Assembly: GCA_963663475.2 (NCBI GenBank)
Contig: CAXXJV010000001.1
Location: 608,001 to 672,000, forward strand
Source: Candidatus Cloacimonadales bacterium
Lineage (GTDB): Bacteria; Cloacimonadota; Cloacimonadia; Cloacimonadales; JAFGVF01
Direction of reading: 5' to 3'
DNA: 64,000 nucleotides
A program made the position numbers and the translations under genes. Below, piece by piece: positions 10,309 to 60,889 of the stretch (positions within the stretch are counted from its first letter, which is position 1; each line of letters opens with the position of its first letter). A model generated the notes under the pieces. It did no database searches. It had not been told where the DNA came from and saw nothing but the letters and a program-made list of their open reading frames with translations.

Positions 10309-11459
10309 TTTATTTAGATAATGCAGCAAGCTCTTTCCCCAAAGCACCTGGTGTAAGCCAAGCTCTTGCTGATCATATTAATAATATTGCAGGTAATACA
10401 GGTAGATCTTCCTATTCAGGAGCAGTGACAAATTCTTTAATGATTTTTGAAACAAGAGAAAAGCTAGCCCAGCTACTAAATACAGGAGACAGCTCTCGCT
10501 TTATCTTTACTCAAAATGCTAGCCATGCTTTAAATATAGCAATTTTAGGTAGTGTGAAAGCTGGTGATAATATCTTAATCTCTCCCTTAGAGCATAACTC
10601 GGTTATGCGGCCTCTCTCCTACTTGCAAGAACACTTAGCTATAAATATCCATACTTTTAAGTTAAAAGACAATATGGATATTGATTGGGAAGATTTTTCT
10701 CAGCAGATAAAATCAAAGAAAATTAGCAAGATAATTACTATCCTAGCTTCTAATGTTACTGGAAGTATTCTTCCAATAGAGAAAATTGCCAGTTTTTGCA
10801 ATAATTCTTCTATCGATTTAATAGTAGATGCTTCTCAATATGTAGGCTATGCCCCACTTAACCTGGCAAAGCTTAATGCCCAAGCAATCTGTTTTCCTGG
10901 TCATAAAGGTCTTTTAGGACCTAGCGGAACAGGTCTTCTTTGGCTAGGAGATGATTTTAATCCTCAAGCTTTAACTTTTGGAGGAACTGGTTCTAAATCT
11001 GAATCAATTATTCAGCCAGATTTTCTTCCAGATAAATATGAAGCAGGAACCCCAAACATTACTGGTATTTTTGGTCTCTCTAAAGCACTTGATTATCTTC
11101 TTGATTATGGCTTAGACAAGATTTTGAAAAAAAGAAGACAGATTTATACTTATCTACTTGAAAAAATAGCTAATATGGATGAAATTATTATCTATAGTAA
11201 TCAGGATATTGATAGACAAATAGGCTTGCTTTCCTTTAATATTAAAGAGATGCCTTGTTCAAAAGTTACCTACCAGCTTGACAAAAAGGATATTGCGGTT
11301 CGAATGGGACTGCATTGTGCTCCTCAAGCTCATAGATTTATTAATACATATGACTTAGGGGGATGTGTACGAATGAGTCCAAGCTCTTTCACAAGCGAAA
11401 GAGAAATAGATACAACAGTTAAAACATTAAAAGAGATTATTTATGGATTTAAAAGATAA
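10305..11459 (+). CDS. Class V PLP aminotransferase, cysteine desulfurase / selenocysteine lyase family
   Basis: IYLDNAASS, EHNS, DASQ, PGHKGLLGP, RMGLHCAP; directly upstream of selD. Confidence 0.9.
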   Translation: MIYLDNAASSFPKAPGVSQALADHINNIAGNTGRSSYSGAVTNSLMIFETREKLAQLLNTGDSSRFIFTQNASHALNIAILGSVKAGDNILISPLEHNSVMRPLSYLQEHLAINIHTFKLKDNMDIDWEDFSQQIKSKKISKIITILASNVTGSILPIEKIASFCNNSSIDLIVDASQYVGYAPLNLAKLNAQAICFPGHKGLLGPSGTGLLWLGDDFNPQALTFGGTGSKSESIIQPDFLPDKYEAGTPNITGIFGLSKALDYLLDYGLDKILKKRRQIYTYLLEKIANMDEIIIYSNQDIDRQIGLLSFNIKEMPCSKVTYQLDKKDIAVRMGLHCAPQAHRFINTYDLGGCVRMSPSSFTSEREIDTTVKTLKEIIYGFKR

Positions 11460-12492
11460 AGTTAAAAAGCTTACTGATTACAGTAAGTATTCTGGCTGAG
11501 GAGCTAAACTAAGTCCAGAGGTTCTGGACCGTGCTCTTGCAGGTATGGAGCAAGGCAATTATCCTAACTTGCTACTTGATTATTCTCACGCTGAAGATGC
11601 TGGTGTTTATAAAGTTAGTGATGATTTAGCTATTGTGCAAACACTTGATTTCTTTCCTCCTATAGTAGACGAAGCTTATCAGTTCGGACAGATTGCTGCT
11701 TGTAATGCACTTTCTGATATCTACGCTATGGGAGCTTGCCCTAAAACAGCTATGAGTATTGTCTGTTTCCCTGATGATACACTTGACATAACTATCCTTA
11801 GAGAAATTATGCAAGGTGCTTTGTCTATCTTAAAAGAAGCAGAAACAGCTTTAGTTGGAGGACATAGTATTAGTGACAGTGATATCAAATTTGGACTTTC
11901 AGTTACTGGTTTTGTTAACCCTAATAAGATTATCAAGAATAATAGTCCTCGCGATAAGGATCTTATCATCGTAACGAAACCAATTGGCACAGGTATCATC
12001 AACACTGTTCTCAAGGCCGATATGGCCTCACCAGAGCTAGTAAACTTAGCAGTCAAGTACATGACTCAGCTAAACAGGAAGGCAGCTGAGATAGCCCAAA
12101 ACTATGATATTTCATGTGGAACTGATATAACTGGTTTTGGATTGTTAGGCCATTTAGTGGAAATGATTCAAGATTCACAGCTAGGAGCTCTAATAGAATA
12201 TAAAAAAGTAGCTATACTACCGGAAGTACTAGACTTTGCTAAGATGGGTTTAGTTCCTGCGGGCACCTATAATAATAAGAATTACAGAAGCTGTTATATC
12301 AATGATATTGAAAAGCTTCCTCAAGAAGAAATAGATATATTATTTGATCCTCAGACTTCTGGAGGATTACTTTATGGAGTAAAAGCTGACCAAGCTGAGG
12401 CTATGCTTAAAGAATTATTAGAAGCGGGAATTGATGCATATATATGTGGAGAATTTAGTAAAGATATTAATAAAATTGAGGTAAAATTCTAA
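11443..12492 (+). CDS. selD: Selenide, water dikinase SelD, a selenoprotein (Sec at codon 19, TGA 11497-11499), 349 aa
   Basis: ATG 11443 gives MDLKDKVKKLTDYSKYSG-TGA-GAKLSPEVLDRAL, in frame with the ORF-track protein at 11545. TGA sits at the catalytic Cys/Sec of the G[CU]G.K motif. DFFPP, GGHS, DITGFGLLGH and DPQTSGGLL are present. Confidence 0.95.
11501..11536 (+). promoter_or_regulatory. SECIS element of selD
   Basis: Hairpin gtccaga-ggt-tctggac (11513-11529) with a G-containing loop about 21 nt after the UGA; lower stem gagc/gctc. Confidence 0.8.
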
Positions 12493-26208: not shown

Positions 26209-26240
26209 AAAAACAAAAGCAGGTCTCAGACCTGCTTTTG
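26209..26240 (-). terminator. Intrinsic terminator of the secreted selenoprotein gene
   Basis: caaaagcaggtc-tca-gacctgcttttg perfect hairpin followed by a T run on the minus strand. Confidence 0.8.
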
Positions 26241-26268
26241 TGGAATATTTTCTACAAATAGATTTTTT

Positions 26269-28134
26269 CTATTTGATTAAAATTGTTTTAGAACTAAATG
26301 TCTTTTCGGGAGTTACAACTTTATAGAAGTAAATACCGTTTGAACATTTGTTGCCATTTTGATCTCTTCCATCCCAAGTTATATTATGCATACCTTGTGT
26401 GAAAGTTTCATCAGCAAGAGTTTTAATCAATTGACCTTTCAAGTTATAAATAGACACTTGGATATGTTGAGCTTTTCTAGCTTGAATATCAATAGCAGAC
26501 ATCTTATTAAATGGGTTAGGATAAGAGCTTTTGCTTACGATCAACTCTTGACTATCATTTTCATTAGAAACACCATTGTTAATAATGATTTCGATTGGTT
26601 CTGAAGGCATGGAAAGTCCACCTGGAGAGTAAACACCTTTAATAACATAAACATGGGTGCCATCTTCAACATCTTCATCAGTATAAGTAAGAACTTCAGT
26701 GTCCATAATTGTAGCTATAAAGGTTGTACCTCTTTGGATTTTATAACCAAAAAGACCTCTAACTTCTGGGAATATTGGTGGTTCCCAGGTTAGGACTATA
26801 TCATTTCCATTTTCAACTGTATAAGCAAAGTTAGTAGGAGCTACTAAATCACTAATAGGATTTGGACTTGTGATTGTTACTTCTTGACCTGGCATTTGAT
26901 GCTCGTCAATTGGCATTATAGTGAATCTGAAGTATTTTCCAACATGCTCTGGTGTAAAGTGAAGAGTTAATTGATCAGCATTGATGTTATTAAAGTCTGA
27001 CCAGTTTTCACCATCATCAGAAATATACCAAGCCATCATAGTTTCACCCTCATCATCATCATCAGCATCAACGAAGTCATAAATAACATCTACTGAGAAG
27101 TTTTTCATTAAAACACCATCAAATCTAAGGTTTTCAGCAACAGGTGCCTGGTTAGGGAAGCCTGAACCTGAAAGAGTAATTGTGTTTGTTTCAAAACCTA
27201 GAATATCAGTGGTAATAGTTATTAATCCATTATAATCTGTTTCTTCTGTTGGTAAGAATGTGATAGTATGGTTTTCAATAGCACCAGGAGCTAGACTATA
27301 GTTCATTTCACCAGAAAGTTCAAAACCAGGAGCATCCATAGTGATACTTACATTTGTAGTTGTACCTGAAACGTTGGCTACTACGAATGATTTGGTAAAA
27401 TTAGAGCCAATATAAGCAGGACCAAAATCTGCTTCAGTCATTGAAACAGCAGAAGAACCAGCTTCATCAGCTTGGTAAATTTCTGAATCACCTGATAAGA
27501 TTCTTTGAACTAAAACAAAGCCTTTGATAGTTGAAGCATCCCAGCTTGAATCCACTGAGAAGGCATGACTATATGTACCGCTTTGACCAGCATTAGATTG
27601 AGTAAAATCTTCATCTGCATAAGCAATCACAGATGAGAAATAACTATCAGTTATATATCTGGTTAAAATATAAATAACCTTAACATTTGCATTATCAAAA
27701 GCTTGCTCAAGTTGGATAGTAGCATTTAAGCTATATTCACCAGCAGAGCCTAAAAGATAAGAATCAATTGTCATTGGTGCTTCATTATTAATTAGTTGAT
27801 TATAAATTGGTAAAAATTGTGCATTGTAAGCATCAACAGCTGCACCGACTTCTAGTTCAGTACCTTGGAAAGCTGTTTGAGGGATACCTTGTGAATTTGA
27901 ACCTACAAGTCCTCTTCTTGAAGAGTAGTTAGGGGATTGGTTAGCAGAGTCACCTTGCCAAATAAGTGGGACAACGTTTGGCTGGTTATTATAAAGATTG
28001 AACAGACCTGTTCTTGCGCGTGGACAGTATCCTCACCAAGATTCAGTGAATACTTCTCCAACAACATTTAATTGAGCTGCTGTGAGAGAAAGTAAACTAA
28101 GTAACAACATAGCAAAAATCATTGCTTTTTTCAT
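26269..28134 (-). CDS. Secreted Omp28/thioredoxin-like selenoprotein (UxxC; Sec34, TGA at 28035-28033) with Ig/FN3-like modules and a T9SS-like C-terminal domain, 621 aa
   Basis: ATG 28134 with gaaggag RBS gives MKKAMIFAMLLLSLLSLTAAQLNVVGEVFTESW-TGA-GYCPRARTGL...GIPQ..., with no other stop until it joins the 501-aa ORF in frame. C-terminus is SYPNPFN...IYNLKGQLIKTL...WDG...GIYFY...K. Confidence 0.9.
28000..28013 (-). promoter_or_regulatory. SECIS apical hairpin of the secreted selenoprotein
   Basis: Minus strand gaaca-ggtc-tgttc, 20-33 nt after the UGA. The core caggtctg matches the E. coli fdhF SECIS apex (GCAGGUCUGC) as I recall it. Confidence 0.8.
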
Positions 28135-28546
28135 ACTTAAATTCTCCTTCCATTTTTTTAAGTTTTTGTATTTCACATCTTGTTGCAATATTATACAAGC
28201 AATTCTTTTATGGCAAGAACTTTTTTTATTAATAAGATTTTTTAAAAAAATTATTGCTCAAGTTAACTATGTTAACCATTAATTCAAGCCAAGTTCTAGT
28301 CATATATTCCCTTACCACATCTCCTCTTTTTATTACCGCAGGAAAGAACTTGAAACCCAAATTGAATAGTTGTACTTTCTGAAAACTAGCTAGCTTATTA
28401 GTAAACTTAATTATCTTATCTTCACCCTCCTCTCCTCCTTACTACTAGTGAAAAAGGCTTTTTTCCTTGACGTAAAAAAAGGCTTTTTAAATGATGCAGT
28501 TAGTAAAATATCGCAATATCTTAGATAATAAAAAGAGGTAATAAAA

Positions 28547-36905: not shown

Positions 36906-39257
36906 ATGAAAAAAAGCTTACTTTTATTACTTTTAGCAACTACGAGTCTGCTCTTTAGTCAAGGAAGTCTCCCTGATTGCTACCCAACTAACCAAGAAAT
37001 AACCGACCAAATTTTGCAATATCAAGAAGACTATCCTGATATTTGTCAAGTTACTGTTGCCGGCTACTCCCAAGAAGATAATTTACCTATTTATTTAGTT
37101 AAATTATCTGAAAATGTCCAAGAATTCCAAGCTGAAAAACCTGTTATTTTATTCAGTTCACTTATCCATGCTGAAGAAGTTTTAGGCATCCCTATTACCC
37201 TTAAAACTATTGATGAAATTCTTACTCATAATAGTTCATCTCCTTACTCAAACTGGCTACAACAGTTACAAATATATTTTATTCCAACCTTAAATCCAGA
37301 AGGCTACCAAGTAGTTTCTGATGGTATCGATACTTCTTACCGTAAAAATAAACGCGATAATAATGAAAATGGCATCTTTGATTTTAACGCTGTTGTTGGC
37401 CATGATATAGATGGTGTTGATCCTAACCGTAACTTCCCGCTAAATTGGGTACACGGTGATACCTTATACTCAACATCAGGACTTGAAGTTTATGACTACT
37501 ATCGTGGTCCTGCCCCTCTTTCAGAATCTGAAGTAAACATTATTTGGGATTTTGTAGAAGAATATAAACCAGTTTATTCTATTCAATGGCACTCATCCAG
37601 AACAGGTAACTTATCGGAAAAAGTCTACTATCCTTGGAACTGGTACAATCTTAGACCATCTCCAGACCTAGATATGTCTGAGCAATTAGGTCTAGGCGTT
37701 GCTGCGAATATGCTTAAAGAAAACCAAGCTAATACTTATGAATGCTATCCAGGAACTGGCCGAAAAGGCTCCCAAGACCATTCCTTATACCAGGCTTTTG
37801 GAACCCTTCAAATCCTTGTTGAATGTGGAACCCTTAATCTTCAACCAGAAGAAGATGGTATGAACTTCGTTGCCCAACAAGGTTATAATGCTTCTGCCTG
37901 GATGCTTAATAGAGCCCTTCCTAATAGCATAGAAACAGCTTCAAACTCTATGCTAACTGGTGTGATTACGGATGCTGTCTCAGGTCAACCCCTAGAAGCT
38001 GAAATCGAAATTGCTGGCCGAAATCAAAGATACCTAGCACCAAGATTATCCTTAGCTGAAAGTGGAAGATACTTCCGCCCTCTTGTTAATGGACAATACA
38101 CTCTTATTGTAAAAAAAGAAGGCTATTATACTCACACCCAAAACATTACTGTCTATAACGTTAGAACTACTAAAAATGTTGAACTAACACCGCTACCTCT
38201 CCCTAACTCAGCTCTATCTCTTAATATTGATGGCTTCTGGGGTCCAGGAAAAGTTAAAATCGAATACCTTGATATTGCAGATCATATAGTAGAAATCGAT
38301 GATTTCACTCCTAATTCTCCCCAAGTTATCGACCTTATTTCAGGACAAGTTATGCTTACCTTCGAAAGCCCTGACCGCTACTTTACTGATGAGTTCACCA
38401 TCCCTAATGGTCCTTATGCTATCAATATCGACCTTACTAACTTCCAAGATTTATTTACTGATTACTTTGATAATTTAGATAATTGGACTGGTACTGATAA
38501 CTGGGATATCACTTCTTATACTAATTCTGAAGGATTAACTCAATCATTCATGTCTGATTCTAAACACTGGAACTTTAATTTTGAATCAGGATATGATAAT
38601 AACTTCTATGAACATAACTGTGATTATCACCTTACAACTAATCAACCAATCATTATCAATCCTGACCGTATTAATTATATAGAATTAGAACACTGGCTCT
38701 ATACTGAATGGGATTATGACTGGGCGACTGTCTATATTAGCTCTGATGGTGTAAATTGGATAGATACACCTGTTTGGACTGAATCTGGCCAGTTTGACTA
38801 CCTCCATAAAGATTGGATTAAAATACCTGATGATTTCACATCTAATCAGCTATATATCACCCTATCTCTAACTGATGACGGGGCTGAACAAAGATTAGTT
38901 GACCCAGGTTGGAATATTAACAAAATCTCTGTTAAATCTTTCTCCCCTCAAGTAACTTCGAATGAAAATGACGTGGTCCAAACTTCAAATTCTCTCTTAG
39001 GTAAAAACTACCCTAATCCATTTAATCCTCAAACTTCAATTAGCTTTAGCTTAGATAAAAATTTAAACCATAATGCTAAAATTGAAATTTATAATTTAAG
39101 GGGACAAAAAGTGAAACAAATCCCTCTCCATGAAAATGATATTAAGGCTGGAAAAGTTACTTGGAATGCTGAAGAACAAGCTTCTGGTGTTTACCTATAT
39201 CGCTTGACTTCTGATGGTATTGTGATTGATACTAAAAAAGCAACATTGCTAAAATAA
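36906..39257 (+). CDS. Secreted M14 zinc carboxypeptidase with T9SS-like C-terminal domain
   Basis: Signal peptide, IHAEE, NPEG, RKN, GVDPNRNF, QWHS; C-terminal NYPNPFNP...IYNLRGQKVK...SGVYLY. Confidence 0.88.
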   Translation: MKKSLLLLLLATTSLLFSQGSLPDCYPTNQEITDQILQYQEDYPDICQVTVAGYSQEDNLPIYLVKLSENVQEFQAEKPVILFSSLIHAEEVLGIPITLKTIDEILTHNSSSPYSNWLQQLQIYFIPTLNPEGYQVVSDGIDTSYRKNKRDNNENGIFDFNAVVGHDIDGVDPNRNFPLNWVHGDTLYSTSGLEVYDYYRGPAPLSESEVNIIWDFVEEYKPVYSIQWHSSRTGNLSEKVYYPWNWYNLRPSPDLDMSEQLGLGVAANMLKENQANTYECYPGTGRKGSQDHSLYQAFGTLQILVECGTLNLQPEEDGMNFVAQQGYNASAWMLNRALPNSIETASNSMLTGVITDAVSGQPLEAEIEIAGRNQRYLAPRLSLAESGRYFRPLVNGQYTLIVKKEGYYTHTQNITVYNVRTTKNVELTPLPLPNSALSLNIDGFWGPGKVKIEYLDIADHIVEIDDFTPNSPQVIDLISGQVMLTFESPDRYFTDEFTIPNGPYAINIDLTNFQDLFTDYFDNLDNWTGTDNWDITSYTNSEGLTQSFMSDSKHWNFNFESGYDNNFYEHNCDYHLTTNQPIIINPDRINYIELEHWLYTEWDYDWATVYISSDGVNWIDTPVWTESGQFDYLHKDWIKIPDDFTSNQLYITLSLTDDGAEQRLVDPGWNINKISVKSFSPQVTSNENDVVQTSNSLLGKNYPNPFNPQTSISFSLDKNLNHNAKIEIYNLRGQKVKQIPLHENDIKAGKVTWNAEEQASGVYLYRLTSDGIVIDTKKATLLK

Positions 39258-53224: not shown

Positions 53225-56200
53225 ATGAAAAAATTTATTTTGTTGTTTTCCTTGCTTATGACCATTAGTATGGTGATGGCAGTTCAGGAAAACTTAATGG
53301 ATTTACACCAAAACTCTATTACTTTACAGAATAGTAATGATTATGGTGTAGATATCGCTTATGAACTTGGAAACATAGAGATTAAGACTAATAATACTCG
53401 TGGTGGAGAATATGCAGAGATTTTTGCAAAGGACTATTCTTTAACTAAAGATGAGGGTTTACCTCAATTACCATACAGTCAGAAAATCATCTCAGTTCCA
53501 CTTGGTGCAAGTGTTGAAGCTTCTATTGAAGTTAATTCAGCAAGTAGTTTAAACCTAGTCAGAAGAGGTTTTAATCAAGCAATTATTCCTGCTCAACCAT
53601 CTGTGGCTAAGTGTGAAAATATCGAAGATATGCCTTTTATCAAAAATGAACAAATATATAATGCAGATAAAGCTTTTAAATACCAACCAGTAAGTGTTAA
53701 AGAAATTGGTATTTTGAGAGGAATGAGACTTTTTGAAGTTAACTTCTATCCAGTTGAATACAATCCAGTATCTGGAGACCTCCGTGTTATCAACTCTGCA
53801 GATGTTACTATTGAATTTGTCAATGGCGATATCTATGCTACTGAAGAATTAAAAGCTAAAACAAGATCCTTTATGTTTGAAGGTATTTATTCTCAAAACA
53901 TCTTCAACTATTACCCTTCAAGATCTTCTTTAGAAAACTACCCACTTGGCTACTTAATAATTACACCAAACCAATTTATGGATACTTTAGAACCATTCAT
54001 TACCTGGAAACAAGAACAAGGTTATGATGTAACTATTGGTATTACTGATAATATCGGTTCTTCTACAAGTGCAATTAAAAACTATATCCAAGGTATCTGG
54101 GACGCAGCTACTCCTAACAACCCTGCTCCTTCTTACTTATTAATAGTTGGTGATACTCCTCAAGTTCCAGCTTACGCTGGTTCAACAGATTCTGGTCATG
54201 TAACAGACCTTAATTATGTTAGATTAAACGGTACAGACTATCTTCCTGAAATGTATTTTGGAAGATTCTCAGCAACAACAGTTGCCCAGTTAACCCCTCA
54301 AGTTAATAAAACTTTAACCTATCAAAAATATGAAATGTCCGACCCTTCTTACCTTGAAAGAGCAACTCTTATTGCCGGTGTAGATGGTTACTGGGCTAAT
54401 ACTCATGGTAATGGTACCATTAACTATGGTAGCGATAACTATTTCAACGAAGAACATGATATAGATGTTACTACTTATTACTATCCTCAATCAGGTTCTT
54501 CTGCTGCAAGTATCGTAGCAGATGCAAGTGCTGGTTTAGGTTATTTAAATTATACTGCTCATGGTTCTGAAACTTCATGGTCAGACCCTAGTTTTACCAT
54601 TTCAAATATTAATAGTCTCCAAAACTCAGGTAAATATCCTGTTGTTGTAGGAAACTGCTGTTTAACAAATCACTTCAATACAGGTACATGTTTCGGTGAA
54701 GCTTGGTTAAGAGCTACTAACGGTGCAGTTATCTATATTGGTGGAACAAACTCAACCTACTGGGATGAAGACTACTGGTGGTCTGTTGGTCACTTCACTC
54801 CTACTTCAACATCTAACCCAACTTATGCTGGATCTGGACTAGGTATGTACGATGCCCTCTTCCATGAACATAATGAAGCTTTTGAAGACTGGGCTCATAC
54901 TGCAGGTTCTATGGTATTCACAGGTAATATGGCTGTCCAATCCTCAGCTTCAACTAGAAAAAATTATTACTGGGAAATCTACTCAATTATGGGTGACCCT
55001 TCTTTAATGCCTTATATTGGTGTTCCTCAAGCTCAAACTGTTGATTACTCTAACACTATGCTTGTTGGCATGACTTCTCTTAATATCACAGCAGCTCCTT
55101 ATAGCTATGCTGCTCTTTCTAAAGAAGGCCAGCTTCTTGGAACAGTCTTAACAGACGGTACAGGAAATGGTACAATCAACTTTGAAGCACTTAACCTTCC
55201 TGGTAATGTTAAATTAGTTGTGTCTCACACTGACTACCAACCATTTATCACAGATATTGAAGTTGTACCAGCAGAAGGTCCTTTCCTTGTTATTGATAAC
55301 CAACAAATTACTGGAAACATTGCAGCAGGTCAAAACCTCGACATGGCTCTTACTATTGGAAATGTTGGTGTTGAAGCTGTAGCAAATGTTGATGTTACTC
55401 TTACAAGTCTTGATGCTAATGCTACTATTACTAATGCCAATACTACTATAGCTAATATCGATGCAAATAGCACTAGTCAATTAGCTTCTGCTTTTGAAAT
55501 AACACTTGCTAATGGTATCAACCAAGGCGACAATATTGCCTTTAATTTACTCCTTGAATCAGCTGACGAAAGCTGGGAATATGAAATAATGCTAACTGCT
55601 GTTGGACCACATTTTATTATCACTGAAGTTGAAGTAAACGATGGTGATAACAACTTACTTGATCCTAACGAGACTGCTCAACTTTTAATCAGCTTCCAAA
55701 ATAATGGTAATTTTGTAGCTAATACTAGTGTAGCAAGTTTAATCTCAGCAACACCTGGCATAACTATTGCTGATCCAAACATTGCATTAGGAGATATTGC
55801 TGCTAATGCTAACGGTCAATTCACTGTTACTGTTGAAACATCTGCTTATATGGAAACTGGAACTATTGCAAACTTCACTACTAATTTCACTAGTGAATAT
55901 AACGTTATCTCTTCAGATAACTTTGAGCTATCTGTTGGTTTACTCTTTGAAGACTTTGAATCTGGTGACTTTGCATCAGACTTCAACTGGAATACTCCTG
56001 GTTGGTCTGTTGTAAGTAACGAAGCTCATGAAGGTTCTCACTCTGCTAAATCAAATACTATTAACCACAGCCAATCAGCTTCTATGACTGTTCAAATGGA
56101 TGATGTAACTGCAGGTCAAATAAGCTTCTGGGTAAAAGTATCTTCAGAAAGTGGCTATGATGAATTAACTTTCTATATTGATAATGCTGCCCAAGATTCT

Positions 56201-56992
56201 TGGAGTGGTACTGTTAACTGGCAAGAAGTATCTTACAATGTTACTGATGGTAACCATACCTTTAAGTGGGAATATAGCAAAGACTATAGTGTAAGTGAAG
56301 GTGATGATTGTGCTTGGATTGACTATATTGTCTTCCCTACCGCTACAAGTGAAGTTGGCGATCCTGTGATAGCTCTTGATATGACAGAATATGACTTTGG
56401 TGCTGTTGCAAGTGGTCAAACTCAATTCACCATCTCCAACTCTGGCCAAGGTATCTTAGCTGGTCAAATTTCACTTAATAGTCAAAGCGTATTCTCAATA
56501 AGCTTAGAAGACCAAGAAGCTAACAACCAGCTTAATTACTCTCTTGATCCTGAAGCAGAATTGCAAGTAACTCTTCACTTCAATCCTATTGCTAATGTTG
56601 AATACTCTGATAATGTCATTATTACTTCAAATGATCCACAACAGGAACAAGTTGTAATTAATGTTTACGGAACAGGTCAAGGTGTATCTAATGATGACGA
56701 AAACCTTATTCCACAAATAACAGAACTTCAAGGAAACTACCCTAATCCATTTAACCCTCAAACTGCTATTAAATATGCAGTTAAGCAAGATGGAAACGTT
56801 TCCCTTAAAATATTTAATTTAAAAGGCCAGCTTGTTAAAACTCTTGTTAATGATGATGTTAAAGCTGGATTCCATAGTATTGTCTGGGATGGCAAAAATA
56901 ATTTTGGAACAGATGTTGCAACAGGTATATACTTGTATCGTCTAGAAACCAAAACATATAACCAAACCAAAAAGATGATGCTGATGAAATAA
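53225..56992 (+). CDS. Gingipain-like C25 cysteine peptidase with propeptide, Ig modules and T9SS-like C-terminal domain
   Basis: GLPQLP propeptide, WKQEQG, LIVGD, GRFS, NYTAHG, GNCC catalytic region, GDP; C-terminal NYPNPFNP...WDG...KKMMLMK. Confidence 0.93.
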   Translation: MKKFILLFSLLMTISMVMAVQENLMDLHQNSITLQNSNDYGVDIAYELGNIEIKTNNTRGGEYAEIFAKDYSLTKDEGLPQLPYSQKIISVPLGASVEASIEVNSASSLNLVRRGFNQAIIPAQPSVAKCENIEDMPFIKNEQIYNADKAFKYQPVSVKEIGILRGMRLFEVNFYPVEYNPVSGDLRVINSADVTIEFVNGDIYATEELKAKTRSFMFEGIYSQNIFNYYPSRSSLENYPLGYLIITPNQFMDTLEPFITWKQEQGYDVTIGITDNIGSSTSAIKNYIQGIWDAATPNNPAPSYLLIVGDTPQVPAYAGSTDSGHVTDLNYVRLNGTDYLPEMYFGRFSATTVAQLTPQVNKTLTYQKYEMSDPSYLERATLIAGVDGYWANTHGNGTINYGSDNYFNEEHDIDVTTYYYPQSGSSAASIVADASAGLGYLNYTAHGSETSWSDPSFTISNINSLQNSGKYPVVVGNCCLTNHFNTGTCFGEAWLRATNGAVIYIGGTNSTYWDEDYWWSVGHFTPTSTSNPTYAGSGLGMYDALFHEHNEAFEDWAHTAGSMVFTGNMAVQSSASTRKNYYWEIYSIMGDPSLMPYIGVPQAQTVDYSNTMLVGMTSLNITAAPYSYAALSKEGQLLGTVLTDGTGNGTINFEALNLPGNVKLVVSHTDYQPFITDIEVVPAEGPFLVIDNQQITGNIAAGQNLDMALTIGNVGVEAVANVDVTLTSLDANATITNANTTIANIDANSTSQLASAFEITLANGINQGDNIAFNLLLESADESWEYEIMLTAVGPHFIITEVEVNDGDNNLLDPNETAQLLISFQNNGNFVANTSVASLISATPGITIADPNIALGDIAANANGQFTVTVETSAYMETGTIANFTTNFTSEYNVISSDNFELSVGLLFEDFESGDFASDFNWNTPGWSVVSNEAHEGSHSAKSNTINHSQSASMTVQMDDVTAGQISFWVKVSSESGYDELTFYIDNAAQDSWSGTVNWQEVSYNVTDGNHTFKWEYSKDYSVSEGDDCAWIDYIVFPTATSEVGDPVIALDMTEYDFGAVASGQTQFTISNSGQGILAGQISLNSQSVFSISLEDQEANNQLNYSLDPEAELQVTLHFNPIANVEYSDNVIITSNDPQQEQVVINVYGTGQGVSNDDENLIPQITELQGNYPNPFNPQTAIKYAVKQDGNVSLKIFNLKGQLVKTLVNDDVKAGFHSIVWDGKNNFGTDVATGIYLYRLETKTYNQTKKMMLMK
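56904..56920 (+). promoter_or_regulatory. Sigma-54 (-24/-12) promoter inside the gingipain coding sequence
   Basis: ttGGaacagatgttGCa: GG 56906-56907, exactly 10 nt, GC 56918-56919; the same elements are kept in the duplicate at 57891. Confidence 0.6.
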
Positions 56993-59185: not shown

Positions 59186-60889
59186 ATGAATAAATTTAGA
59201 TTAATACTAATAATACTTATCAGCAATTGCTTAGGTCTTGTAGCTAGCGAGTGGACCATTCTTATTTATATGGCTGCAGATAATGGACTACATGACTATG
59301 CTTTAGAGGATATTGCCGAAATGGAACTTTCCTCCTTTAGTTCTCAAGCTAACATAATTGTAGAGATGGACGGGGATGCGAATAGCGATTTATCAGCAAG
59401 CTATAGATATAAAATTACGGAGAATCCCCAAGCTGGAATTCAATCTCCTATCATTGCAAATTTGGGAGAAAGAAATTCAGGTTCTTACTTAACTTTAAAG
59501 AATTTTGTAGAGTGGGGCTTTAACCGCTATAAGTCTTCAAAAAAAGCCTTAATTATCTGGTCTCATGGCAACGGCTGGGCAAAAGATAGACTAAATAAGG
59601 GTATTGCGCCTGATAACACCTCTCAAAGCTTTATAAGTATGTCAAATCATGAAATGCAAGCAGCCTTAAGTGAAATCGAGCTTGATCTTCTTATCTATGA
59701 TGCTTGTAATATGCAGACTATTGAAAATTTAATTGAGCTAGAGGGGAGAGCTGATTATATCATCGGTTCTGAAGCCACTGTTCCTTCCACTGGCCTACCT
59801 TATGGTCAGATTTTTGACTACTGGCAAGAAGCTACTGATATAGACTCCCTAGTTATAAATATTCCTAAAATATATGTTGAAGCCTATAGACCAGGCAATG
59901 TTTATAATTCTGGACCCTTTTTAAGAAGAGTTACTTCCTCTACTGCCAATATGTCTAAACTTTCCACTTTTAAAGAAGACCTTAATGCTTTTCTAACTAA
60001 GTGGAGTTCTGATCCAAGAGACTTTATCATTTCTAGAGAGGATCTAAATGAATTTGGTATCACTTCTACTGATGTTGATTTAAAAGAACTTCTAGATAAT
60101 TTATCTGATACTACTAGCAATAATGATTTGCAAGAAGATTGTCTGGACTTAAGCTCTAAATTAGACTCTCTTTTTATTAGTTATGACTCTTCCTCATTCG
60201 ATTATAAAGTAGGATCAGCTAGTATTTGGTTTCCCAAGTACTCCTGGCAATTTGCTAACAACTGGCAGATTTATAGAATGTTGCATTTTGCTCAAGGAGC
60301 TATAGGTAACTTTTTAAACAAGTTCTTAGCACCTGATGAAATCCCTCCCTTTCCTTTTGAAATTACTAAGTCACAGGTAATTAACGAGACAATCTATTTA
60401 GAATGGGAAAATCATCTTGATCCTGACCCTCTAAACTACCAAATTACTTTTGACTTTAATGATGGCACTAGTCAGATAATTAATCTGGAAAACTTAGGCA
60501 GCTACCAGACAAGTGTTAAAGAGAATGGTCAAGTCTATATTCTAGCCCAAGATGCAGCAGGAAACCAGACAAAATCCTCTGTCTTAGATTTTGAAATTGG
60601 AAGCGACTACGGTAAGCTTTATCTAGCTCCCAACCCCATAAGAAAAGATAATGAAGGTAAAATAATATTCTATGCTGAGAATAGCGGGGGTAAAAAGGCT
60701 GAAATAAGCTTATTTTCCCTAAGTGGTAAAGTTATATCAAAAGCTAAAATTAACTTGCCTGAGGGGATAAATGAGCATAAGATTGACCTCTCTGATATTA
60801 TTAAGGTAAAATTATCATCAGGAATTTACTTGTGCAGCTTAAAGATTGAAAATAAGTACTATAAAACAAAATTCGCTGTGGAATATTAA
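59186..60889 (+). CDS. Clostripain-like C11 cysteine peptidase with a divergent T9SS-like C-terminal domain
   Basis: WTILIYMAADN, WSHGNGW, DACNM, GSE; C-terminal APNP...FSLSGK...SGIYL...K. Confidence 0.88.
   Translation: MNKFRLILIILISNCLGLVASEWTILIYMAADNGLHDYALEDIAEMELSSFSSQANIIVEMDGDANSDLSASYRYKITENPQAGIQSPIIANLGERNSGSYLTLKNFVEWGFNRYKSSKKALIIWSHGNGWAKDRLNKGIAPDNTSQSFISMSNHEMQAALSEIELDLLIYDACNMQTIENLIELEGRADYIIGSEATVPSTGLPYGQIFDYWQEATDIDSLVINIPKIYVEAYRPGNVYNSGPFLRRVTSSTANMSKLSTFKEDLNAFLTKWSSDPRDFIISREDLNEFGITSTDVDLKELLDNLSDTTSNNDLQEDCLDLSSKLDSLFISYDSSSFDYKVGSASIWFPKYSWQFANNWQIYRMLHFAQGAIGNFLNKFLAPDEIPPFPFEITKSQVINETIYLEWENHLDPDPLNYQITFDFNDGTSQIINLENLGSYQTSVKENGQVYILAQDAAGNQTKSSVLDFEIGSDYGKLYLAPNPIRKDNEGKIIFYAENSGGKKAEISLFSLSGKVISKAKINLPEGINEHKIDLSDIIKVKLSSGIYLCSLKIENKYYKTKFAVEY

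Follow-up and report, generated by a model that had tools for sequence, protein, structure and literature searches.

Positions 26269-28134 on the minus strand of the 64,000-nucleotide stretch analysed here (the window, from the Candidatus Cloacimonadales bacterium contig CAXXJV010000001.1) hold one gene of 621 codons, which runs from an ATG at 28132-28134 to a TAG at 26269-26271. The sole in-frame stop of this 621-codon frame is a TGA at codon 34 (28033-28035), in the context GEVFTESW-TGA-GYCP. The comparisons presented below indicate, with a probability that we put at about 0.87, that this is a genuine selenoprotein gene and that it encodes a thiol-disulfide oxidoreductase that resembles the 35-kDa hemin-binding protein HBP35 of Porphyromonas gingivalis and is exported through a type IX secretion system (T9SS). 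A hidden secreted selenoprotein had been proposed for this locus in an earlier reading of the sequence alone (hereafter the sequence-only reading). As that reading had pointed out, the list of open reading frames (ORFs; genetic code table 11) has the gene begin only at codon 121 (ATG 27774), and hence 120 codons late. Its further observations were also recovered: a good ribosome-binding site upstream of ATG 28134, a frame that continues from GEVFTESW-TGA-GYCP into the 501-aa ORF, a GIP motif resembling the cis-proline loop of thioredoxins, and a hairpin 20-33 nt after the UGA. The features of the locus are as follows.

26269-28134, minus strand: complete gene of the proposed selenoprotein, delimited by the reading frame and by 11 collinear same-family orthologues from other genomes (gene and orthologues 621-623 aa)
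28144-28149, minus strand: Shine-Dalgarno-like AAGGAG, 9 nt 5' of the ATG, invariant across two other assemblies
28075-28134, minus strand: predicted signal peptide, residues 1-20 (MKK, hydrophobic core, TAA/Q), read by eye
28033-28035, minus strand: TGA codon 34, the proposed selenocysteine (Sec) and U of U34-G-Y-C37, assigned from Sec/Cys pairing and other assemblies
28024-28026, minus strand: TGT codon 37, the putative resolving Cys of UxxC, conserved in at least 90% of 36 sequences
28000-28013, minus strand: hairpin GAACA-GGUC-UGUUC of the selenocysteine insertion sequence (SECIS) type, 20-33 nt 3' of the UGA
27880-27888, minus strand: G83-I84-P85 motif, with the Pro85 codon at 27880-27882
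27781-28074, minus strand: predicted thioredoxin-fold subdomain, residues 21-118 (mean predicted local distance difference test, pLDDT, of the model 93.4; thioredoxin matches with Z 9.0-9.9; profile match to 1fo5, E 0.0015)
27442-27780, minus strand: predicted Omp28-type seven-strand beta-sandwich, residues 119-231 (match to 2r2c, Z 11.2, root-mean-square deviation (rmsd) 2.2 A, 100 residues)
26578-27435, minus strand: three predicted all-beta Ig/FN3-like sandwich modules, approximately residues 234-326, 332-425 and 434-519, taken from the full-length model
26281-26523, minus strand: T9SS type-A sorting domain, residues 538-618 (TIGR04183, PF18962 and PF13860 above cut-off)
26213-26241, minus strand: intrinsic-terminator-like hairpin with a 13-bp stem and a T run, 28 nt 3' of the stop codon

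The gene is flanked by genes for a poly(A)-polymerase/CCA-type enzyme and a tyrosyl-tRNA synthetase, both of which are housekeeping genes, and the selenoprotein gene therefore stands alone. The G+C content of the window is 33.8%.

An in-frame TGA that alternates with cysteine codons

The usual hallmark of Sec-containing thioredoxin-fold proteins is that Sec and Cys replace each other within a redox motif. We performed a six-frame search with residues 1-230 of the protein, which returned homologues in all 41 related genomes, and located the motif in these homologues with phmmer and pairwise alignment. Among the 86 matches listed for these 41 genomes, 29 contained exactly one in-frame TGA and 57 contained none. 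The TGA fell inside the redox motif in every one of the 29 TGA-bearing frames (17 genomes), being present as UxxC in 25, as CxxU in two and as GCUG in two, while each of the eight TGA-free frames examined carried a Cys codon (TGC or TGT) at the motif. The choice of extra loci favoured TGA forms, and the unbiased ratio is the 29/86 among the matches listed. The TGA/Cys pairs that the sequence-only reading had anticipated are thus found among the homologues. Within the gene's own family, the TGA was kept, with an open frame on both sides of it, in the gene and in all 11 orthologues, whose identity over the first 230 residues is 54-95%. Taken together, these sequence comparisons argue for insertion of Sec at codon 34.

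The genome also encodes the dedicated Sec machinery. The matches for selA (508 bits), selB (333 bits) and selC, the tRNA-Sec gene (62.5 bits), lie in one cluster, and these matches as well as that for selD (358 bits) all exceed the curated cut-offs. As the sequence-only reading had noted, selD is located in the window (11443-12492, plus strand). It is itself a TGA-containing gene (TGA at 11497-11499, in ...YSG-U-GAKL...), and the table-11 ORF list shortens it to 11545-12492. Among the 17 genomes with TGA forms, 15 had a selA match above the cut-off. Of the TGA-form genomes, G035 has a partial selA together with selB, tRNA-Sec and selD, and G016 has selB and tRNA-Sec above threshold. Conversely, eight of the nine genomes that lack a selA match carry TGA-free forms only.

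A conserved hairpin downstream of the TGA

We scored synonymous change over 456 codon columns in 12 orthologues. The least change was found at codons 41-45, at 0.018 compared to a gene mean of 0.47. These codons are exactly those of the stem-loop, they form the lowest of 452 five-column windows, and the next two lowest windows overlap the hairpin. The five core pairs could be formed in all 16 sequences compared (14 distinct). In the 14 distinct sequences, pair 25-34 was G-C in eight and A-U in six, and never unpaired. Overall, 81.6% of the cells were paired, compared to 27.6-57.1% in slid registers, and none of 500 shuffles reached the observed value.

For a position-specific test, a hairpin was counted as SECIS-like when it had at least 5 bp and a loop of 3-7 nt with a G in the first two positions, the loop starting 15-34 nt past the codon. 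The bSECIS model published for bacterial SECIS elements likewise sets rules for spacing and loop. Such a hairpin arises in 12% of the synonymous recodings of this gene. It was present in 25 of the 29 Sec forms, where 4.0 would be expected under synonymous recoding, and the hairpin is in this sense conserved among the TGA-containing homologues.

The selD gene of the same genome served as an internal positive control. Its SECIS (window 11497-11556) likewise folds into a hairpin directly behind the UGA, in which an A-U pair closes an apical G-G-U loop. The distance from the UGA to the loop start is 21 nt in selD and 25 nt in the studied gene, where the loop is GGUC. The selD stem, of 7 bp, is more stable than that of the studied gene, which has 5 bp in the gene's genus and 6-7 bp in some relatives.

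Hairpins were also observed in Cys forms. The Cys forms L037-L041 and a second frame of L038 (L038:193-1461) have a hairpin of 5-8 bp with a GUC or GGUCG loop approximately 20 nt past the Cys codon. These five close Cys forms (L037-L041) all stem from selA-containing genomes.

Predicted fold and active site

The N-terminal unit, modelled from a 36-sequence alignment, was predicted with high confidence (pLDDT 93.4, predicted template modelling score, pTM, 0.90) as a thioredoxin fold followed by a seven-strand beta-sandwich. In the model, the beta-alpha-beta-alpha-beta-beta-alpha topology of the first part is made up of strands 5-11, 35-41, 67-70 and 74-77 and helices 18-31, 51-58 and 83-95. The U/CxxC motif occupies model residues 15-18, at the N-terminus of helix 1. 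Pro85, which was invariant in all 36 sequences, directly precedes strand beta-3 and aligns with the Pro of thioredoxin 1fo5. Invariant positions are concentrated at the Pro85 loop and around the active site of the thioredoxin fold.

Structural comparison of the whole unit returned HBP35 of P. gingivalis (5y1a) with Z 20.7 and rmsd 2.5 A over 208 of 214 residues, and 2axo with Z 17.6 over 192 residues. The two halves also had separate matches. The first half, within model residues 1-99, matched thioredoxins (Z 9.0-9.9, 84-87 residues), and the sandwich half, model residues 100-212, matched the Omp28 domain (2r2c; Z 11.2, rmsd 2.2 A, 100 residues). Foldseek gave E-values of 2.4e-10 for 5y1a and 1.2e-08 for 2axo. 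A profile search found the motif NVVLEVFTAEWCGYCP in HBP35, and returned 1fo5 with an E-value of 0.0015 and a weak match to 2axo.

These models support a placement of the UxxC motif in a thioredoxin fold that is joined to an Omp28-type beta-sandwich. The sequence-only reading had named the motif as an Omp28/thioredoxin-fold active site. The thioredoxin fold around UxxC agrees with this, but the solved Omp28 domain (2r2c) corresponds to the sandwich half, and the half with the CxxC position is an ordinary thioredoxin fold. The truncated ORF in public collections begins at the first strand of the Omp28-type sandwich (Met121, 27774).

A full-length AlphaFold model built from 12 close orthologues (pTM 0.35, with pLDDT below 50 in the thioredoxin part) was used for the middle modules only. 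In this model, residues 234-519 consist entirely of strands, with pLDDT mostly between 77 and 93, and three beta-sandwich modules can be seen where the sequence-only reading had placed Ig/FN3 stalk domains. Sub-threshold Pfam matches to Cep192_D4/ASH, IG_AIR9 and fn3 were obtained for the same modules.

Predicted export route

The C-terminal type-A sorting domain exceeded the curated cut-offs of TIGR04183 (38.1 bits vs 23), PF18962 (37.3 vs 27) and PF13860 (44 vs 27), in agreement with the T9SS-like sorting domain of the sequence-only reading. The genome also encodes the PorU sortase (571.6 bits vs a cut-off of 420) and has 149 sorting-domain matches. Judged by these sequence matches, the protein is probably exported by the T9SS. 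At the other end of the protein, a helix at residues 2-17 of the full-length model coincides with the signal-peptide region, and A19 and Q21 were invariant in all 12 orthologues. The predicted mature N-terminus is Gln21.

A Gln follows the predicted cleavage site (codon 21, window 28072-28074) not only in the 12 orthologues but also in most paralogues. This residue would fit the pyroglutamate 'Q-rule' that is said to apply to secreted proteins of Bacteroidetes.

Three peptidases with a T9SS sorting domain are encoded elsewhere in the window, 9-31 kb from the selenoprotein gene and all on the plus strand: an M14 carboxypeptidase of 783 aa (36906-39257), a C25 gingipain-like peptidase with propeptide of 1255 aa (53225-56992) and a C11 clostripain-like peptidase of 567 aa (59186-60889). 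Their proximity is uninformative, since about 149 T9SS cargo genes in 3.3 Mb make co-occurrence within 64 kb expected. The sequence-only reading had regarded the cysteine proteases as neighbours that the selenoprotein might keep reduced. The C25 and C11 genes are 25-31 kb away, the genes that do flank the selenoprotein gene are housekeeping genes, and the genomic context lends no support to such a role. The idea of a service to the window's cysteine proteases was therefore dropped for want of linkage to the C25 and C11 genes.

Comparison with HBP35 and related proteins

The best structural match for the whole unit, HBP35, is also the closest in layout. Both proteins have a signal peptide, a thioredoxin fold, a beta-sandwich and a C-terminal T9SS domain, and in both the mature chain starts with Gln; in the studied protein the signal peptide and the Gln start are predictions. 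The context of the active site is near-identical, with VVLEVFTAEWCGYCP in HBP35 and VVGEVFTESWUGYCP in the studied protein. The two differ in that HBP35 has CxxC where the studied protein has UxxC, in their overall identity of only 15-16%, and in phylum. The studied protein is also longer, at 621 aa compared to 344 aa, and has three extra sandwich modules before the sorting domain. HBP35 is reported to reduce insulin disulfides, for which both C48 and C51 are required (PMC2907840). The same report describes an involvement of its C-terminal domain in outer-membrane transport, its glycosylation on the cell surface and recombinant mature forms that begin at Q22 (PMC2907840), and the title of another paper states that HBP35 secretion depends on the Por secretion system (PMC3120885). 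By analogy with HBP35, the studied protein may be catalytically active, as its modelled active site would also allow.

The same arrangement of a thioredoxin-like part and a sandwich is found in Atu2684 / AGR_C_4864 (2axo). This is a protein of unknown function, with 222 residues in the solved chain, that lacks selenocysteine. Compared to the Omp28 outer-membrane lipoprotein of P. gingivalis, of which the solved domain (2r2c) superposes on the sandwich half of the studied protein, two differences stand out: the solved Omp28 domain excludes the CxxC part, and in the studied protein no lipobox Cys follows the predicted signal peptide. With classical thioredoxins and bacterial Sec-containing thioredoxin-fold proteins the studied protein shares the topology, the motif at the start of helix 1 and the Pro before strand 3. 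It differs from the small cytoplasmic thioredoxin carriers in being, by prediction, an exported, multi-domain and T9SS-sorted protein with a fused Omp28-type sandwich.

Among curated families, the closest relative is NF045500, 'Omp28-related selenoprotein' (an equivalog_domain model of NCBIfam), which describes the same domain type and is homologous to the studied protein over residues 21-225 (E 7.7e-12). An NF045500-type domain (E at most 1e-10) was found in 111 of 151 genomes sampled from the phylum.

Weighing of the selenoprotein assignment

Several observations weigh against the reading of this gene as one for a Sec-containing, HBP35-like T9SS cargo. As to the machinery, genome G016 carries a TGA form and is 97% complete (500 contigs), but has no detectable selA or selD. 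As to expression, the one RNA-library contig that matched the gene spans 26247-28020, thus ending 13 nt short of the TGA, and possibly represents contaminating DNA; it shows at most library sequence 246 nt upstream of the annotated start. As to the hairpin, the covariation amounts to few independent events, since the sequences are kin. The SECIS-like hairpin is moreover not exclusive to TGA forms, since it also occurs in six of the eight Cys-form homologues, where 1.5 would be expected; the hairpins of the Cys forms may be fossil or latent SECIS elements, or have another role. The folding energy of the 5-bp hairpin was no better than that of shuffles or synonymous recodings (z of -0.01, 0.01 and 0.35). 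Relative to recodings, the energy z averaged -0.82 over the 28 frames whose aligned column holds TGA and -0.79 over the nine in which it holds Cys, so that folding energy does not discriminate between them; synonymous-site conservation, pair counts and the position-specific hairpin test were therefore used instead. An Rfam scan of 27700-28300 at E up to 10 gave three chance-level matches, none of which was to a SECIS family.

As to family membership, the studied protein scored 45.3 bits against NF045500 (37.2 in the genome search), while the cut-off is 200 bits. None of ten relatives tested (best score 75.8) and none of the 151 genomes sampled from the phylum reached this cut-off. Since all scores are below it, the studied clade is a relative of the NF045500 family and not a member; by model score, true NF045500 members appear to live elsewhere and the model does not cover the studied clade. 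Pfam PF11551 (Omp28; gathering threshold 34.9) gave no match in the protein at E up to 1, and one relative scored 16.8 bits. Of the two profile matches that the sequence-only reading had foreseen, that to the sorting domain thus exceeded the cut-off and that to Omp28 was lacking. As to export, the proposed surface localisation is drawn from analogy with P. gingivalis cargo, and a thioredoxin placed beyond the outer membrane would need a supply of reducing power there.

The most serious alternative accepts a real selenoprotein but gives it another main job, which could be the binding of haem, of another ligand or of a metal through the selenol-thiol pair or the sandwich, or the action of a periplasmic DsbA-like oxidant prior to export. 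HBP35 is reported to bind hemin, to be needed for growth when hemin is scarce and to complement an E. coli dsbA mutant (PMC2907840). The N-terminal unit is fused to diverse C-terminal modules in relatives, which suggests a general-purpose surface module, and no extracellular reductant is known. We nevertheless consider this alternative unlikely. An identity of 15-16% means that the hemin-binding site of HBP35 is not transferable to the studied protein, and the invariant residues gather at the thioredoxin active site and the Pro85 loop. Furthermore, proteins with a selenol in the attacking position typically use it for redox catalysis.

If the TGA were a true stop, the locus would encode a 33-residue peptide and a separate downstream T9SS cargo, started at Met121 or elsewhere and made up of beta-sandwich modules only. 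This would fit the way in which public collections store the gene (501 aa) and its orthologues (501-580 aa), and TGA does terminate two of 38 long frames of this genome. Products of 27 and 29 kDa from internal starts have also been reported for HBP35 (PMC2907840). Against a true stop, the downstream starts vary among orthologues (501, 546 and 566-580 aa), and a Shine-Dalgarno-like sequence precedes ATG 28134 but not ATG 27774. All 12 orthologues conserve residues 1-120 at the protein level, and residues 21-120 form, together with the remainder of the modelled part, one two-domain unit predicted with high confidence. The truncated product would, in addition, be unable to reach the T9SS because it has no signal peptide, and Cys took the place of the TGA in all eight TGA-free frames examined. 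Taken together, this makes a true stop very improbable.

A lone in-frame stop in an otherwise open frame also looks like a sequencing or assembly error, or like a recent nonsense mutation in a pseudogene. The stretch was found in runs that are labelled as wastewater and microbial-mat metagenomes, and contigs from two other such runs (one microbial-mat, one wastewater) that cover the whole gene stretch show 17 and 11 differing positions in 2101 nt. Within 27800-28154 both contigs are identical to it, which excludes the sequencing error that the sequence-only reading had itself considered. The TGA is thus present in three assemblies from different studies, and the 11 orthologues from other genomes all share it, even at an identity as low as 54%. 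With protein-level conservation on both sides of the TGA, an error or a pseudogene is hardly credible. Equally negligible is the possibility that TGA stands for one of the standard amino acids, namely Trp or Gly as in genetic codes 4 or 25: although the database entries P0002 and P0003 give Trp (ESWWGYCP), the aligned residue of TGA-free homologues is always Cys and never Trp or Gly, and the gene has a single TGA among its 621 codons. TGA is not a general sense codon here because the window is filled at ordinary gene density by table-11 ORFs (51 with at least 100 aa), and the genome has dedicated Sec machinery, with the TGA of selD at the classical Sec position.

Proposed mechanism

The selenoprotein reading implies the following route. 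SelB with Sec-tRNA(Sec) would bind the GAACA-GGUC-UGUUC hairpin and insert selenocysteine at UGA-34, as the comparative evidence suggests. The 621-aa precursor would pass the inner membrane via its signal peptide and the Sec translocon, with predicted cleavage before Gln21. After folding in the periplasm, the type-A sorting domain would pass the protein to the T9SS, and the PorU sortase may then cut off this domain and probably anchor the protein on the cell surface, judging from the cargo of P. gingivalis. The displayed protein would consist of a stalk of three beta-sandwich modules with, at its tip, the thioredoxin fold packed on the Omp28-type sandwich. At the active site, the putative attacking nucleophile is Sec34, located where helix 1 begins, and Cys37 would resolve the mixed selenenylsulfide, while the invariant Pro85 loop may form the substrate groove, as it does in thioredoxins.

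Family variants, annotation and significance

Divergent paralogues in related genomes carry Sec at other positions of the motif. In L052:495-3182 (plus strand) and L053:548-2767 (minus strand) it occurs as C-x-G-U followed by GGDY, and in L054:561-1577 and L055:564-1574 (both on the minus strand) as G-C-U-G. A genus-mate (G004) has a second paralogue, in Cys form (L056:483-2972, plus strand; 41% identity), in which GLUG repeats replace the Ig and C-terminal domain part. This paralogue has an altered active-site context, SSNL-C-GYC-T, and lacks a SECIS-like hairpin. In the relatives, the thioredoxin/Omp28 unit invariably sits at the N-terminus, and its C-terminal fusion partners include PKD, right-handed beta-helix, dockerin, MAM, choice-of-anchor J, GLUG and carboxypeptidase-regulatory-like modules. 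This diversity of C-terminal fusions suggests a portable surface redox module.

In public collections, including those of NCBI, ENA and JGI, the gene is stored as a 501-aa fragment. This truncation by standard annotation, which the sequence-only reading had predicted, removes the signal peptide and the catalytic domain. Orthologues are stored either as fragments of 501-580 aa or as 621-aa proteins with Trp at position 34. The entries P0002 and P0003 are full-length only through a reading of the TGA as Trp, a code-4 artefact on short contigs, and an orthologue bears, in one source, the label 'T9SS type A sorting domain-containing protein [Candidatus Cloacimonetes bacterium]'. Every public copy found is wrong, being either truncated after the TGA or supplied with a Trp at the active site. 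As NF045500 does not reach this clade, automatic pipelines will go on overlooking it. TGA genes of this kind are present in at least 17 of the 41 related genomes examined.

Our literature search found no paper that links selenoproteins with type IX secretion, and no description of this family under Omp28, Cloacimonas or Cloacimonadota combined with selenoprotein. None of the terms Omp28, Cloacimon, hemin, outer membrane and secret occurs in the main text of the BSepDB paper (PMC13326102) or in that of deep-Sep (PMC12013277); the family may still be listed in either resource, since the family lists sit in supplements and on websites. Whether the family had been catalogued, which the sequence-only reading had left aside, can be answered in part: the related NF045500 is curated, while the studied clade falls below its cut-off. 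The clade of Sec-containing, HBP35-like T9SS cargo nevertheless belongs to an already known kind of selenoprotein.

The UxxC, CxxU, GCUG and CxxC forms of one domain in related genomes constitute a compact natural experiment on Sec/Cys exchange. A broader interpretation, which we offer tentatively and with the odds against it, is that this is the first recognised bacterial selenoenzyme family displayed beyond the outer membrane by the T9SS. Its module would repeatedly have exchanged Cys and Sec and moved Sec among UxxC, CxxU and GCUG, and the hairpins of the Cys forms may allow switching in both directions. The selenol might then act as a reactive extracellular reductase that opens disulfide-bonded proteins, or capture haem or metals. 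If the protein is true T9SS cargo, such a Sec enzyme would bring selenium chemistry to the surface of anaerobic cells.

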